A stretch of 64,000 nucleotides of DNA from Candidatus Thermosaccharophagus tengchongensis (lineage in GTDB: Bacteria; Armatimonadota; Fervidibacteria; Fervidibacterales; Thermosaccharophagaceae), in the NCBI GenBank assembly GCA_032161105.1, contig JAVHTD010000010.1. One strand, written 5' to 3'. The translations under genes were made by a program, and so were the position numbers. The notes below the pieces were generated by a model. It saw only the letters and a list, made by a program, of their open reading frames with translations. It was not told the DNA's origin and searched no databases. Positions 40,874-46,938 of the stretch are shown here, piece by piece (position 1 is the stretch's first letter; every line of letters begins with the position of its first letter).

Positions 40874-43318
40874 CTATTCATCCCCCTCACTGTCGCGGTG
40901 TGCTTGTGCCGTGGCGCTGCTTAAAGCGTTGTCGCTTTGCACATCACGAGCATACTCACATTTGTCCGAACTGCATTTGACGATAAGTTTTGAACGCTGC
41001 TTAACCTGAATTAGTGGTGAGCCGCAAATCGGGCACTGCTCACCCGTTGGCTTTCCGGGCAACAGGATGGTGCACTTAGGGTAGTTGCTGCATCCGTAAA
41101 ACACCTTCCCCCTGAACTTACCCTTGCGTGCTACTCTTGGGCGAAGGTAACCATTACAGCCATCTGCTGGGCATGGTATCAAGTTGCTCTCATCAATCGG
41201 CATTGTGAACTTACACTGCGGATAGTTTGAGCAACCCCAAAATGCGCCGGTGCGACCGATGCGCTTGACCATTGGCGCACCGCAAACTTGACAGCTTCTT
41301 TCGGCGCTGCGGGCGTCTACTTCAACTTCGTATTGCCCCTCTTGCTCCCCCTCTTTGACTTGTTTGCTCGGCGCCTCGTGAATCGCTTCCTCTACCAGCT
41401 GGGCAGTGAATTTGCAATCCGGAAAGCCGCTGCACGCCAAGAACGGACCATAGCGGCTATACCTGATGACCATTCTCCTTCCGCACCTTGGACAAGCCTT
41501 ATCAGTCTCAACACCACTAAACTGCTTCATACCCTCCTGTGCTCTCTCAAGTGCTTGCATGAACGGCTCATAGAATGTCCGGACGACACTCACCCAATCG
41601 GCATTCCCCTCCTCAACGGCATCAAGATGCTCTTCCATTTGCGCTGTGAACTTGATGTTGATTAACTCGGGGAAGTGCGCAACGAGCTGGTCGTTGACAA
41701 GCATTCCAAGAGGTGTGGCATGCAGCTTCTTTCCCCTCACCTCAACATAGCCTCGCTTGATTATCGTTGAAACAATTGGCGCATAAGTGCTCGGGCGACC
41801 TATACCGTAGCGCTCCAGCGCTCTTATAAGCGTTGCCTGGGTATATCTTGATGGTGGCTTTGTCCAATGCTGCTTCGGCATTACATCAAGTAGTCTTAAC
41901 CTCTCACCAACTCTCACATCCGGAAGCCAACCCTCTTCCTCCCGCTCTTCCTCATCATCTCTACCCTCTTGGTAAACTGCCAAGTAGCCATCAAACTTGA
42001 TCCTTGAACCAGTTGCGCAGAGCAAGTAATCTCCACCTTGAATGTCTATGCGCATGGTGTCATAAATTGCATCTGCCATTTGCGATGCAACAAACCTTTG
42101 CCAAATTAGGCTATAAAGCTCATGCTGAGCTCGGGTTAGATATGGTTCAACATTGTTCGGGTGACGCATGACTGATGTTGGTCGTATGGCTTCGTGAGCA
42201 TCTTGAGCTGAACGCTTTGGGCGATATTGCCTTGGCTTCTCTGGGAGGTATTGTTCGCCAAAAGCGGTCATGATGAACTCTCTTGCCTGTTGAATAGCCT
42301 CCGGGGCAACGCGTGTTGAATCCGTGCGCATGTAGGTGATCAAACCGACGGAGCCTTCATCGCCAATTTCAATCCCCTCGTAAAGCTGTTGAGCGACGCG
42401 CATCGTCTGTTCAGGATTGAACCCGAGCTTCCTTGAAGCCTCCTGCTGCAGCGTTGATGTGATAAACGGTGGCGGTGGTGGCTTCGCTTTATCCTCACGC
42501 TTTAGGTCAATGACGATGAAGTGCTGCTGCCTGAGCTCATCAGCGATGCGCAACGCTTCCTGTTCATTCGGTATCTGAATGTCGCTTCCGGCGAACTTTA
42601 TCAGCTTAGCTTCAAATGGCTCATCTCTATCTTCGGGCGTGAGCAACACCGTTATCGTCCAATACTCCTGCGGGACAAAATTTTGTATCTCTCGCTCGCG
42701 CTCACAAACAAGCATCAGTGCGACTGATTGGACGCGCCCAGCACTGAGTCCCTTTGCCACTTTGCTCCACAGCAGGGGGCTTAAGTGATAGCCGAATATT
42801 CTGTCAAGGACTCGCCGTGCCTGTTGCGCGTTGACTAATCGCATGTCAATGTCCCTTGGCGAGCTGAGCGCCCTTAAGACGGCGTCCCTCGTTATCTCGT
42901 GGAACTCAATCCGCTTTGTGTATGGGCAGTTGATCAGCTGAGCTACATGCCACGCAATAGCTTCCCCTTCTCTATCTGGGTCTGAGGCGATGTAGACTTC
43001 CCTCGCCCTCTTCGCGGCTTCTTTTAACTCATTGATGACCTTGCGCCTTGAGGGGATGACGACATACTTTGGTGCAAAGTCATTCTCAACATCCACTCCA
43101 AACGAACTTTCGGGAAGATCACGCACATGTCCCATCGTGCTCAATACTTTGAATCCAGCTCCAACGATGCCCTGCACTGTGCGAGCCTTCGCCGGCGATT
43201 CAACAACGATCAACTTCTCGCCATTACATTCGTTTTGCGGTGATGCAATCCCTCTTTCCCTCTTCCCTTTTGAACGCTTACTGACTTTGCCCTTGGAGCG
43301 CACATGCTTGCGCATCAC
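40874..43318 (-). CDS. topA: DNA topoisomerase I with C-terminal zinc ribbons
   Basis: VVESPAK, DPDREGE, SAGRVQS, ITYMRTDS, AHEAIRPT, GIGRPSTY, repeated CxxC/CSNYPxC. Confidence 0.97.
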   Translation of the reverse strand: MMRKHVRSKGKVSKRSKGKRERGIASPQNECNGEKLIVVESPAKARTVQGIVGAGFKVLSTMGHVRDLPESSFGVDVENDFAPKYVVIPSRRKVINELKEAAKRAREVYIASDPDREGEAIAWHVAQLINCPYTKRIEFHEITRDAVLRALSSPRDIDMRLVNAQQARRVLDRIFGYHLSPLLWSKVAKGLSAGRVQSVALMLVCEREREIQNFVPQEYWTITVLLTPEDRDEPFEAKLIKFAGSDIQIPNEQEALRIADELRQQHFIVIDLKREDKAKPPPPPFITSTLQQEASRKLGFNPEQTMRVAQQLYEGIEIGDEGSVGLITYMRTDSTRVAPEAIQQAREFIMTAFGEQYLPEKPRQYRPKRSAQDAHEAIRPTSVMRHPNNVEPYLTRAQHELYSLIWQRFVASQMADAIYDTMRIDIQGGDYLLCATGSRIKFDGYLAVYQEGRDDEEEREEEGWLPDVRVGERLRLLDVMPKQHWTKPPSRYTQATLIRALERYGIGRPSTYAPIVSTIIKRGYVEVRGKKLHATPLGMLVNDQLVAHFPELINIKFTAQMEEHLDAVEEGNADWVSVVRTFYEPFMQALERAQEGMKQFSGVETDKACPRCGRRMVIRYSRYGPFLACSGFPDCKFTAQLVEEAIHEAPSKQVKEGEQEGQYEVEVDARSAERSCQVCGAPMVKRIGRTGAFWGCSNYPQCKFTMPIDESNLIPCPADGCNGYLRPRVARKGKFRGKVFYGCSNYPKCTILLPGKPTGEQCPICGSPLIQVKQRSKLIVKCSSDKCEYARDVQSDNALSSATAQAHRDSEGDE

Positions 43319-43354
43319 TACGCATCCCCCGAGGTATTAACGCTCAATCAAAAA

Positions 43355-43428
43355 TGGGCCGGGCAGGATTTGAACCTGCGACCTTGGGATTAAGAGTCCC
43401 CTGCTCTACCTGGCTGAGCTACCGGCCC
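43355..43428 (-). tRNA. tRNA-Lys(CTT), CCA not encoded
   Basis: GGGCCGGTAGCTCAGCCAGGTAGAGCAGGGGACTCTTAATCCCAAGGTCGCAGGTTCAAATCCTGCCCGGCCCA cloverleaf. Confidence 0.95.
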
Positions 43429-43778
43429 ACTGCAGGTCAATTGTGCTAACAACGATATAAACGCTTCATTGCTTTGGGCTCTTACTACCGGTGTTCAAAT
43501 TATAACGCATGCAAGTGCCCACATCATTTCGCCATGCTGCGTTAAATCTGCCCGCGCTGCCAGCCGCACAAGTGGACAGCTAACTTCACTGCCAAATCAA
43601 GATATGCAACCGAGATGCCCACAATGCCAATATGCCGAGACAGCCTCTAACCCATTTGCTGCCTCACTCAGAGTAGTTGCCTCGCAACAGTTGATAGAAG
43701 CGCTCAGCTACAACTAAGCATCGCTTTTCCCTCTGCTCCATTAGCCATATTGGGATAGGACCAAAATTGTAACCGCTC

Positions 43779-44323
43779 TCAAAACGAAACAGTCCACATC
43801 ACCCTGATCTCGCATCGGGTTAATTTCCTCCTTTCAAACCCCCAGTCAAATCTTTCCACCTCAAACTTTGGTGGGGATACACAGGTAACAACTAACCCGT
43901 TGTCAAACGAGAACTGGTTTCCGTCCTGGGTAAAACTCTTGGCATTGACATGCAGGCAATAGGTTGCTCTAAGTTTGGGTCCGTTCCATTGGTCTCGCAA
44001 AACAAAATAATCGTGCCGTTCTGGGTGGCGTATGAATATGACTGTGCGACGATATGACGAAGATCGCTCGAAAGGCGAAGCACACATGGTTGCCCTGGTG
44101 TGGGATTGTAGTTGGCAAGCGGCCACTCGTGTGCCAAGCGGAGAGCTTTGCCTGAGGGTATAACTCCATCTAATCCCTCAATCAGTTGATTAAGCCCCTC
44201 TGTTCCATAGCCGCCAATATAAACGCAATTTGGTGCCACAGCGACAGAAGTCAACTGGATTAAGCCTTTAGCGAATACAGCTGCATTCAAGATGCGAGAG
44301 CCACTGCATCTCTTCAAAAGCAT
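43779..44323 (-). pseudogene. Probable decayed gene fragment(s) between tRNA-Arg and tRNA-Lys
   Basis: Two overlapping short frames; segment YRRTVIFIRHPERHDYFVLRDQW…ATYCLHV reads like an internal piece of a larger (heparinase II/III-like) protein; no clear start/RBS. Confidence 0.45.
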
Positions 44324-44332
44324 TATTCGGTA

Positions 44333-44410
44333 TGGCGCGCCCGGAGGGATTTGAACCCCCGACCCCGGGATCCGAAGTCCCGCGCTCTATCCAGACTGAG
44401 CTACGGGCGC
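44333..44410 (-). tRNA. tRNA-Arg(TCG), CCA encoded
   Basis: GCGCCCGTAGCTCAGTCTGGATAGAGCGCGGGACTTCGGATCCCGGGGTCGGGGGTTCAAATCCCTCCGGGCGCGCCA. Confidence 0.95.
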
Positions 44411-44436
44411 GCCGTGCTTACTCACGCAATTGGCTA

Positions 44437-44528
44437 AGGCGGGCCTGGGAATCGAACCCAGCCTCTGCCTTACATCGGCAGAGCCGACGGATTTGCGATC
44501 CGTGGGGCACACCAGCACCATACCCGCC
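44437..44528 (-). tRNA. Atypical tRNA-Sec-like tRNA with GCA (Cys) anticodon and long variable arm
   Basis: Acceptor GGCGGGT/GCCCGCC+T73; D-arm GGTGC-TGGT-GTGCC; anticodon arm ACGGA-TCGCAAA-TCCGT; variable stem CTCTGCC/GGCAGAG; T-arm CTGGG-TTCGATT-CCCAG. Confidence 0.85.
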
Positions 44529-44594
44529 ACTTCGGAAAATGCGCATTAACTTCCCCACTTCCTCCATGATGAATGAGCCATCCTTTTCCCCTCA

Positions 44595-45185
44595 TCACCC
44601 AACAAGCAGCTTGAAAATGGCGGCAAGCAGCGCAACTAAGAGCGGAATTAACATACCAAACAACCATCGCTCAAGAAGGACGAACCGCCTCTCAAATTGC
44701 GCAAACCGCACCCTTATTTCGCCTCTCAGCTCTTCAAATCGTCTATCCATCTCACCTCTTAGCTCTTCAAACCGCTTGTCCATTTCACTGAACCGCCTAT
44801 CCATTTCACCTCTTAACTCTTCAAACCGCTTATCCATTTCACCGAACCGCCTGTCCATTTCGCCTCTTAACTCTTCAAACCGCCTGTCCATCTCACTCCT
44901 CAATTCCTCAAACCGTTTGTTCATCTCACCCCTCAATTCTTCAAACCGCCTGTCCATCTCACTCCTCAATTCCTCAAATTGCCTATCTGCCTCGCCTCTT
45001 GAATATTCAATCTCCCGTTGGAGCGAACCTATGCGGGCTTCAAAGTAGCGTTCAAAGTATGGCGGCACCTCTGGCACAAGGGGCGCTACAACTGTCACGA
45101 GTGTGCGAAGGAAGTTCTCAACAGCCTCCTCGCTCATCCCAAGCCTGCGCGCAAGCTCATCAATCACTTGCTGCCTACTCGTCAT
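44595..45185 (-). CDS. C-terminally anchored coiled-coil protein (DUF1640/CCDC90-like head-stalk-anchor layout)
   Basis: Short helical head, FEELRxEMDRR repeat stalk, C-terminal TM WLFGMLIPLLVALLAAIFKLL; GGAGG RBS. Confidence 0.8.
   Translation of the reverse strand: MTSRQQVIDELARRLGMSEEAVENFLRTLVTVVAPLVPEVPPYFERYFEARIGSLQREIEYSRGEADRQFEELRSEMDRRFEELRGEMNKRFEELRSEMDRRFEELRGEMDRRFGEMDKRFEELRGEMDRRFSEMDKRFEELRGEMDRRFEELRGEIRVRFAQFERRFVLLERWLFGMLIPLLVALLAAIFKLLVG
44706..44978 (-). repeat. Coding tandem repeat: seven 33-bp (11-aa) units interspersed with two 21-bp (7-aa) units
   Basis: FEELR(S/G)EMDRR-type hendecads and F(G/S)EMDKR heptads. Confidence 0.9.
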
Positions 45186-45323
45186 TGCATATCCTCCAAA
45201 CAAAAGTTGAAAGCGTGGGCACCACGCATAGCATAAAGAGCAACCGACCTTTCAATGAGGGAATCTTCAAGCATGGATGCGAACTTAATCCAACTCCGTT
45301 GATGGTGTTCATGCTGGAGAATG

Positions 45324-45397
45324 GGCGAGCGGCGGGACTCGAACCCGCGACCCCTGGGGCCACAGCCCAGTGCTCTAACCGCTGAGCTACGCCCGCC
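45324..45397 (-). tRNA. tRNA-His(GTG) with G-1:C73
   Basis: GGCGGGCGTAGCTCAGCGGTTAGAGCACTGGGCTGTGGCCCCAGGGGTCGCGGGTTCGAGTCCCGCCGCTCGCC. Confidence 0.95.
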
Positions 45398-45467
45398 ACA
45401 AACTTAACCATTCAAATTCTTCAAACTCACCACACCGTATTCAGCAGTTTGCAGCCTCAACCTTGTG

Positions 45468-45541
45468 CGCCCCGGGCAGGACTCGAACCCGCGACCAGAC
45501 GCTTAGAAGGCGCCTGCTCTATCCACCTGAGCTACCGGGGC
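45468..45541 (-). tRNA. tRNA-Arg(TCT), CCA not encoded
   Basis: GCCCCGGTAGCTCAGGTGGATAGAGCAGGCGCCTTCTAAGCGTCTGGTCGCGGGTTCGAGTCCTGCCCGGGGCG. Confidence 0.95.
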
Positions 45542-45584
45542 ACTCATCAAGTCCTCTTTCACATGCAAAGTATCCATCTAAAAT

Positions 45585-45659
45585 TGGAGCGGGAGACGGG
45601 ACTCGAACCCGCGACCTACAGCTTGGAAGGCTGTCGCTCTACCTCTGAGCTACTCCCGC
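45585..45659 (-). tRNA. tRNA-Gly(TCC), CCA encoded
   Basis: GCGGGAGTAGCTCAGAGGTAGAGCGACAGCCTTCCAAGCTGTAGGTCGCGGGTTCGAGTCCCGTCTCCCGCTCCA. Confidence 0.95.
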
Positions 45660-45683
45660 TCATAACCTATTGCAATTGCCATA

Positions 45684-45758
45684 TCGGGGCGACCGGACTT
45701 GAACCGGTGACCTCCTGCTCCCAAGGCAGGCGCGCTAACCAAACTGCGCTACGCCCCG
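45684..45758 (-). tRNA. tRNA-Pro(TGG), CCA not encoded
   Basis: CGGGGCGTAGCGCAGTTTGGTTAGCGCGCCTGCCTTGGGAGCAGGAGGTCACCGGTTCAAGTCCGGTCGCCCCGA. Confidence 0.95.
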
Positions 45759-45879
45759 AATTGATCAACCTCACCACACTTTTATTTTAGCGCACTCACT
45801 TTGAGCACATTCGTGAAGGGGCTTGCGCCGTTGATTAAGCACTAAGCACATTTGTGTAGATGACTTTAGCAGTGCTTCT

Positions 45880-46938
45880 TCACTTCACCTCGGCGCGCAT
45901 TATTAACTCTGTCACGCTGCACGGCTGCAGACCCTTCTGGAGCAGCCCTTCAATTATGTCTGACAGGGAGTTTGATGTGACCTTGCTTGTTGCGTGCAAA
46001 AGGACAATGTCGCCAGATGTTGATTTCGTCACCACACGCCTTATAACTTCCCCCTCACTTACTCCCTTCTTCCAGTCCAAACCATCAACAGCCCAGTAAG
46101 TCGGAATGTAACCCGATGAGAGTAAGACCCTTACGACCCTCTCATCCCTGTCGCCATATGGTGGGCGAACATACGGAGTCAATGGACCATCGTTCCCGAT
46201 GGCTTTAAGTATTGACTGCTCAGCGTGCTTGACTTCACCAACTATCTCGTCGTCAGAGAGTTCCGTCAACTTCGGATGCGAGTAAGTGTGATTGCCGATT
46301 TCATGCCCATGTAAAGCTATCGCCTTTAAGGTGCTCGGAAAGCTATCAGCCCAATGCCCGGTCACGAAAAATGTCGCACGCACATTGTATCGTTTCAACA
46401 CCTCAAGTATGGGCGGCACATACTCGTTCGTAAAATGAGCATCAAATGAGAGTGCGACCAATCCCTCACTTACAGACAGGCGTGATAGCTCAAGTTGCCA
46501 AACCGGCTTACGGACTTCAATTCCATCAAGTGCTCCCTTAATGGCGGACGGCAAATGTGCCTTGAGAGCGTCAATTGATGGGCGACCCAAACCGTGAGCT
46601 GGTGGAGATATAGATCGTGTGCCTTCATTTTTATCGGTGCGATGTTCTGTTGCGCCCTCAGCTTGCGACTTTACCTCATCAATAGGATGAACTTTCTCCC
46701 TCGGCTTAGATGGGCGCTCAGCAATACGATGTTCGGATTCAACTGCTCTATTGGGGCGCAGGACTTTGACCCTTTCATTTGAGCTTGGGCGCTGGCTTTG
46801 ATCCGCGTTGCGGACGCTAACATAAATCCCGATGCAAAGTGAAACGATGAGCATCATGATGAGCAGCAACACTTTTGCGCTCCCGCAATGGTGTGAGTTA
46901 AACATCCGGCAATTCAACTTCACCACTCGCTTAAACAT
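45880..46938 (-). CDS. Membrane-anchored polysaccharide deacetylase (CE4/NodB domain)
   Basis: VALSFDA, ATFFVTG, GNHTYSHP, RPPYG, IVLLH; N-terminal TM; start uncertain. Confidence 0.88.
   Translation of the reverse strand: MFKRVVKLNCRMFNSHHCGSAKVLLLIMMLIVSLCIGIYVSVRNADQSQRPSSNERVKVLRPNRAVESEHRIAERPSKPREKVHPIDEVKSQAEGATEHRTDKNEGTRSISPPAHGLGRPSIDALKAHLPSAIKGALDGIEVRKPVWQLELSRLSVSEGLVALSFDAHFTNEYVPPILEVLKRYNVRATFFVTGHWADSFPSTLKAIALHGHEIGNHTYSHPKLTELSDDEIVGEVKHAEQSILKAIGNDGPLTPYVRPPYGDRDERVVRVLLSSGYIPTYWAVDGLDWKKGVSEGEVIRRVVTKSTSGDIVLLHATSKVTSNSLSDIIEGLLQKGLQPCSVTELIMRAEVK

Follow-up and report, generated by a model that had tools for sequence, protein, structure and literature searches.

A tRNA-Sec-like tRNA-Cys of the selC*/tRNAReC class in a housekeeping tRNA operon of Candidatus Thermosaccharophagus tengchongensis

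The tRNA gene and its cluster

The window analysed here is a stretch of 64,000 nucleotides from contig JAVHTD010000010.1 of Candidatus Thermosaccharophagus tengchongensis (Armatimonadota). At 44437..44528, its minus strand encodes a genuine tRNA of 92 nt, called tRNA-Cys(gca) by ARAGORN and referred to below as the Sec-like tRNA-Cys. The acceptor stem (GGCGGGU/GCCCGCC) has 7 bp and is closed by U7-G66. After a linker composed of A8 and U9 come a 5-bp D-stem (GGUGC/GUGCC, including two G-U pairs) with a UGGU loop, an anticodon arm (ACGGA-UCGCAAA-UCCGU) displaying U32, C33 and GCA, a variable region of 25 nt with a perfect 7-bp stem (CUCUGCC/GGCAGAG), a T arm with a 5-bp stem (CUGGG-UUCGAUU-CCCAG) and U73 in discriminator position. 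The traits listed in the initial annotation (five intact arms, U73, A8, C33, GCA and a spacing of 26 nt to tRNA-Arg(TCG)) were all recovered by ARAGORN, in the sequence and in the fold.

The MFE structure of the 92-nt sequence is this same cloverleaf (-49.6 kcal/mol, z = -3.95), and none of 200 shuffles folded equally well. Likewise, RNAalifold returned the same 7/5 cloverleaf, with nine compensated pairs, from a MAFFT alignment of eight orthologues that was not fitted to a model. Both folds lengthen the anticodon stem by C24-G45 and C25-G44 across the bulged base 43. The acceptor/T helix is strictly 7/5 (12 bp) in the MFE fold, in the RNAalifold consensus and in the covariation counts given below; refolding into 8/4 or 8/5 was ruled out, as an eighth acceptor pair is impossible because A8 faces G. 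The Rfam tRNA-Sec model RF01852, run in E-value mode, matched the gene end to end with 46.7 bits (E 1.1e-8), i.e. 0.3 bit short of its gathering score of 47. At gathering thresholds, Rfam reported the window's six ordinary tRNAs only, the Sec-like tRNA-Cys being absent from the matches. Annotation pipelines would call such a gene a plain tRNA-Cys, or overlook it.

The gene is embedded in a cluster of housekeeping tRNA genes, all encoded on the minus strand and detected by both ARAGORN and Rfam. Upstream, a block at 45323..45759 is composed of tRNA-Pro(TGG) (45683-45759), tRNA-Gly(TCC) (45585-45659), tRNA-Arg(TCT) (45467-45541) and tRNA-His(GTG) (45323-45396). Downstream, after 26 nt and on the same strand, lies tRNA-Arg(TCG) (44333..44410; Rfam tRNA 67.3 bits, CCA encoded), and this gene adjoins the Sec-like copy in all three congeners as well. 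The cluster ends with tRNA-Lys(CTT) (43354..43429); in the congeners G001 and G002 it comes directly after tRNA-Arg(TCG). The arrangement Pro-Gly-Arg-His-[Sec-like Cys]-Arg(-Lys) recurs in the three congeners (G001-G003).

A 202-aa ORF taken from the ORF list (44595..45203, minus strand) separates tRNA-His from the Sec-like tRNA-Cys, as context and not as part of the tRNA. The two tRNA genes are about 800-840 nt apart in the source genome (G000) and in G003, whereas the distance is 11 nt in both G001 and G002; the ORF appears to have been inserted into the tRNA operon. Its only match was a sub-threshold Apolipoprotein-repeat one (38 bits vs a cut-off of 90), and its translation contains D-x-RFEELRGE-like repeats and is hydrophobic at the C-terminus. 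A promoter and terminator scan of 43200-46000 gave counts no higher than the shuffle level.

Contigs from four DNA runs, belonging to four studies, span 44400-44620. Their listed differences (for contig X10, one of the three differing letters counted) are only 44552 and 44563, both outside the tRNA and upstream of it. Since the listed differences fall outside the tRNA, C33 is not an assembly error.

Orthologues, covariation and variable positions

Orthologues were collected by BLAST and with a covariance model built in this analysis (R1). In the search of 151 genomes, 30 loci and 40 further regions were typed, all of them above about 39 bits, lower-scoring matches being left out. BLAST with the tRNA missed three carriers (G007, G008 and G011) that were later matched by the covariance model, and absences by BLAST were therefore not used. 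The Sec-like tRNA-Cys occurred in all three congeners, within the same operon, in seven sister-genus genomes, there as a solitary gene, and in seven of the nine genomes from a second Armatimonadota family. A third subtype (locus L096, G042:C68:76884-76976) was recorded in one genome from another Armatimonadota family; it displays GCA, U73, an encoded CCA and a GGCCGGU start, and its genome has SelB and tRNA-Sec. When 185,579 species genomes were scanned with a pattern, eight matches were obtained: seven MAGs bearing the title Candidatus Fervidibacter, Candidatus Thermosaccharophagus or Armatimonadota, and one titled only 'uncultured bacterium'.

Covariation was assessed on a model-guided alignment of 19 sequences from three Armatimonadota lineages. 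GCA and U73 were conserved in all 19 and A8 in 18; standard pairs filled 98% of the cells, and compensatory double changes were found in 16 of the 31 pairs. The observed covariation score was reached by none of 500 shuffles, and slid controls gave at most 6 compensated pairs. Judging from this substitution pattern, the Sec-like tRNA-Cys is a functional RNA that is selectively maintained. The initial annotation had looked to relatives for compensatory stem changes together with conserved C33 and U73, and had named random decay as the case that would speak against it. The stem changes and U73 are borne out and the decay is not seen; C33, present in 3 of 19 orthologues, is not conserved.

Position 33 is U in 16 orthologues and C in three, all from the window's genus (g1), where three of the four species carry it. 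Position 32 is also variable among these four (U, C, U and G), and the resulting 32/33 combinations (UC, CC, UU and GC) make both positions as variable as the variable loop in a genus where the stems and GCAAA are invariant. The non-ribosomal role that had been suggested on account of C33 was not supported in this respect, C33 being confined to one genus. In the source genome, U33 was found in 48 of 50 ARAGORN calls, and the sole other C33 belongs to a 98-nt tRNA-Arg(acg) call (G000:C9:77613-77710) whose acceptor stem is mismatched and which was taken as a false positive. A tRNA-Ser(act) call at G000:C21:29437-29519, also with a mismatched acceptor stem, was treated in the same way.

At the 3' end, a GCCA lies 3 nt past the acceptor stem in the source genome only and is missing from the three congeners. 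Seven relatives from the second Armatimonadota family encode CCA directly 3' of U73. Because CCA follows U73 in these relatives and GCCA is not conserved, comparison of the sequences identifies U73 as the discriminator, and the alternative G73-type end that the initial annotation had kept in view was rejected.

Cysteine and selenocysteine machinery of the carriers

The source assembly (2.74 Mb, 44 contigs, 97.4% complete) contains a canonical tRNA-Cys(GCA) of 74 nt (G000:C5:103083-103156) and a tRNA-Sec(UCA) with an 8/5 helix and G73 (G000 C23:35895-35989). The window gene is therefore neither the sole ordinary tRNA-Cys of its lineage nor a miscalled tRNA-Sec, two objections raised beforehand. 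One SelB (413 bits), one EF-Tu and one standard full-length CysRS were found, and no second SelB-like, EF-Tu or CysRS-like gene was found in this genome. The SelD gene (G000:C5:91187-92119, 366 bits) displays one in-frame TGA, and SelD is likely a selenoprotein itself. Beyond the window, the source genome encodes a group 4 NiFe hydrogenase. Its large subunit (G000:C1:106690-108420) has two in-frame TGA codons (C1:107387 and C1:107396) within its N-terminal metal-binding motif, LAERI*GI*GFIHS, and a normal CxxC as C-terminal motif; it matches the UXXU type described in PMC13582414. SelA was not found in the source genome with TIGR00474 or PF03841, at 97.4% completeness, nor in G001 with TIGR00474, although both have SelB, SelD and tRNA-Sec. 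SelA occurs in 20 of 25 relatives; its absence from the source genome is tentatively read as an assembly gap, real loss being the alternative.

A dedicated SelB-like factor had been among the initial proposals. No such factor and no second cysS adjoining the Sec-like tRNA-Cys were found in any carrier lineage, and this proposal was not supported. Other neighbours were likewise rejected as dedicated partner genes, since they differ between lineages. The Fervidibacter copy is surrounded by DUF1559, radical SAM, ABC ATPase and GDPD genes; the radical SAM ORF upstream of it in G005 (L007:1764-3089, minus strand) also matches a LAGLIDADG domain and is possibly an intein-containing gene. The copies of the second family are accompanied by a DUF3604 protein and a Pfam-less protein of ~900 aa, which is glycosidase-like by eye only, with no family match and no tblastn match in the source genome.

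In five of the seven carriers from the second family (86-96% complete), no SelB, no SelA and no tRNA-Sec were found; these five (G174, G179, G183, G187 and G119) are all incomplete MAGs. At E<=1e-30, the SelB model matched only an EF-Tu-sized frame of 405 aa in G174, G179 and G183 (175-178 bits) and only a 230-aa fragment in G187 (128.6 bits), and its best match in G119 scored 90.3 bits. The canonical tRNA-Cys is kept in four of the five. Their Sec-like copies are intact, the differences being compensated changes. By analogy, what holds for this second family may extend to the window's genus.

Charging, delivery and relation to known tRNAs

The Sec-like tRNA-Cys belongs to a class that is already known, the published selC* tRNACys, later renamed tRNAReC (Vargas-Rodriguez et al. 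2018, through citing papers). The initial annotation had named the selC* kind, and the Sec shape, the cysteine identity marks, the conservation and the location inside a tRNA operon all agree with what it described. In Mukai et al. 2017 (PMC5389517), selC* tRNACys are tRNA-Sec-like molecules characterised by U73 and by an anticodon that is either GCA or UCA, hosted by anaerobic Firmicutes, Thermodesulfobacteria, Nitrospirae and delta-proteobacteria. All carriers described there have the full Sec machinery, selB* and cysS* sometimes follow the gene, and one such tRNA was cysteinylated by CysRS in vitro. According to a review (PMC11415595, 2024), the tRNAReC (GCA) of Desulfotomaculum nigrificans is delivered by SelB and not by EF-Tu, UGA being translated as Cys. 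A paper on group 4 [NiFeSe] hydrogenases (PMC13582414, September 2026) reported tRNAReC-like tRNAs in 5/5 Armatimonadota with a UXXU motif; its table also lists Fervidibacter-type sequences, the tRNAReC label being given by length, anticodon and discriminator. Row 194 of its Supplementary Table 1, "tRNAReC(GCA)", is identical to the window gene over all 92 nt, C33 included. As for delivery, an 8-bp acceptor stem (13-bp helix) is described as the main determinant for SelB binding and EF-Tu rejection (PMC7609411), and SelB recognition was also ascribed to the 13-bp helix and 8-bp stem in PMC4605307. EF-Tu recognises a 12-bp branch, and 12-bp allo-tRNAs were delivered by EF-Tu in E. coli (PMC5389517).

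We tentatively favour, with slightly less than even confidence, a reading based on these sequence features in which the Sec-like tRNA-Cys would be charged with cysteine by CysRS, carried by EF-Tu and used as an extra Cys isoacceptor and not as a UGA recoder. As a second tRNA-Cys of the selC*/tRNAReC kind, it joins a tRNA-Sec-type body to the Cys identity marks U73 and GCA and is probably transcribed together with the housekeeping tRNAs. Given these two marks, the single CysRS of the source genome may charge it. As its acceptor/T helix has the ordinary 12 bp and not 13, it would then be carried by EF-Tu rather than SelB, and it would read UGC/UGU beside the canonical tRNA-Cys. The GGCGG acceptor start, the T-stem and the anticodon stem resemble those of the canonical tRNA-Cys of the source genome, which is consistent with such a role. 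We favour Cys charging with EF-Tu delivery over SelB-dependent UGA-to-Cys recoding because of the 12-bp helix, the lack of an adjoining dedicated factor and the five Sec-less carriers. Against it stand the SelB, tRNA-Sec, TGA-bearing SelD and two-TGA hydrogenase of the source genome, the SelB delivery of the studied D. nigrificans member (PMC11415595) and the presence of tRNAReC-like tRNAs in 5/5 UXXU Armatimonadota (PMC13582414). In addition, the Sec-less carriers are incomplete MAGs from a family other than the window's, a redundant isoacceptor has no obvious reason to be retained, and free variation at positions 32 and 33 in the window's genus fits oddly with an efficient A-site decoder.

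On a broader scale, the Armatimonadota copies may form a branch of selC*/tRNAReC that is independent of the Sec machinery: a natural tRNA-Cys of class II build with an ordinary 12-bp branch, carried by EF-Tu and kept alongside the canonical tRNA-Cys even in the absence of SelA, SelB and tRNA-Sec, with U33 relaxed in one genus; we hold this view with the same, not quite even, confidence. No statement on 12-bp copies persisting without Sec machinery was found in the literature searched. If they do persist in this way, they are probably not SelB clients.

The most serious competitor, which we nevertheless consider rather unlikely, is the classical tRNAReC role, in which the Cys-charged tRNA would be bound by SelB, read UGA together with a SECIS hairpin and complete the UXXU hydrogenase and SelD with Cys, e.g. 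when selenium is scarce. Such a function has been published for the tested member of the family (PMC11415595, PMC13582414), and the source genome offers SelB, tRNA-Sec, a TGA-bearing SelD and a hydrogenase whose TGA codons lie at C1:107387 and C1:107396. Yet the helix has 12 bp against the 13-bp helix and 8-bp stem expected for SelB (PMC4605307, PMC7609411), a GCA anticodon at UGA requires a G34-A mispair, and five related carriers display no SelA, SelB or tRNA-Sec. The occurrence of the tRNA in all five UXXU-type Armatimonadota (PMC13582414) also speaks for this role; however, four table rows behind it are all of the g1 sequence type, and as they apparently fall within one lineage the association is not independent evidence. 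Fervidibacter genomes with a CXXC hydrogenase carry the tRNA as well (rows 132-137 of the same table). Charging by SerRS through the long variable arm, with Ser, or Sec after conversion by SelA, placed at UGC/UGU, is very unlikely. SerRS does read long variable arms, U73 was said to be SerRS-compatible for allo-tRNAs (PMC5389517) and Aeromonas has a tRNA-Sec whose anticodon is GCA (PMC11415595). Against this, the CysRS identity set U73 plus GCA is invariant in the 19 orthologues, the acceptor of 7 bp and the D-stem of 5 bp are unlike those of tRNA-Sec, and no SelA was found in five carriers. Moreover, Ser placed at Cys codons throughout the proteome would do damage, which fits poorly with the conservation of the gene inside a core tRNA operon. 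The Ser/Sec-charged reader of Cys codons put forward initially thus remained unsupported.

The behaviour of the anticodon loop bears on two further explanations. One is an off-ribosome Cys carrier or regulatory RNA that would still be chargeable by CysRS while selection on decoding is relaxed. The free variation of 32/33 in g1 beside invariant stems and GCAAA agrees with this, as does the loss through C33 of the near-universal U-turn base, the only credible C33 among the source genome's tRNAs. We regard it as improbable, since U33 is present in 16 of 19 orthologues, the gene lies within a housekeeping tRNA operon and no conserved adjoining enzyme able to use the tRNA was found in any lineage; C33 is, besides, tolerated in some functional tRNAs. 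The other explanation, a functionless, decaying remnant left by duplication of a tRNA-Sec or tRNA-Cys gene, could likewise draw on C33 and the variable position 32 in the window's genus, and on a weak closing pair (U7-G66 or G7.A66). It is hardly credible in the face of 98% paired cells, 16 compensated pairs and invariant identity elements among 19 orthologues from three lineages.

Should Cys charging and EF-Tu delivery hold, tRNAs served by different delivery factors would be grouped under a single 'tRNAReC-like' label based on length, anticodon and U73. Together with the 7/5 geometry, the Sec-less carriers offer a clean test case for EF-Tu versus SelB delivery in the selC*/tRNAReC family. 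The issue also bears on Sec versus Cys at the two UGA codons of the hydrogenase and hence on the sequence-based prediction of 'double selenocysteine' enzymes.

Compared with bacterial tRNA-Sec (selC, RF01852), the window tRNA has in common the UGGU D-loop, the long variable arm and the UUCGAUU T-loop, all found in the source genome's own tRNA-Sec. It differs by GCA instead of UCA, U73 instead of G73, a 7-bp instead of an 8-bp acceptor and a 5-bp instead of a 6-bp D-stem; with these traits, a 7/5 helix, 46.7 bits for a threshold of 47 and a true tRNA-Sec encoded separately, it was not classified as a bacterial tRNA-Sec. With the canonical class I tRNA-Cys of the source genome (G000:C5:103083-103156) it shares U73, GCA, the acceptor start GGCGG, a near-identical T-stem and the anticodon stem-loop core CGGAU.GCAAAUCCG. 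The canonical tRNA has a variable loop of 5 nt and U8, in contrast to 25 nt, A8 and a tetraloop D-arm in the window tRNA, which the general tRNA model misses at gathering level. Class I membership was rejected, the short variable loop (4-5 nt) and the standard D-arm being absent.

Allo-tRNAs (8/4 and 9/3) described in PMC5389517 share the 12-bp acceptor branch, the long variable arm and the Sec-like D-arm. Their 12 bp are split differently from the 7/5 of the window tRNA, and they have a presumed serine identity and various anticodons. The allo-tRNA(UAU) species of that paper are brought to mind by a 75-nt tRNA called Ile(tat) (locus L138, G122:C5:17724-17816), which has a UGGU tetraloop on a long D-stem. 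The tRNA-Sec(GCA) of Aeromonas salmonicida (PMC11415595) also joins a Sec-type body to a GCA anticodon; it has Sec identity and places Sec at UGC, unlike the window tRNA with its Cys mark U73.

The selC*/tRNAReC class comes closest. Its members share with the window tRNA a tRNA-Sec-like body, U73 and GCA, as well as a host genome that also has tRNA-Sec, SelB and SelD, and the published sequences display the same CC...Y-GG extension of the anticodon stem. The long variable arm, the long D-stem with tetraloop, the lengthened anticodon stem, U73 and one of the two anticodons of the class (GCA or UCA) are all present in the window tRNA. It stands apart by its location in a housekeeping tRNA operon with no selB* or cysS* downstream, by C33, and by relatives that occur in genomes without Sec machinery, in contrast to the complete machinery of all 2017 carriers (PMC5389517). 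For the class, a longer acceptor stem of 8 bp (8/5 or 8/4 branch) is stated, and the members whose function was tested have 8/5, or a bulged 8/4, whereas the window tRNA is 7/5. The class probably included this geometry already: among the sequences listed in 2017, that of Thermodesulfatator atlanticus, read by eye, also appears to be 7/5 (PMC5389517).
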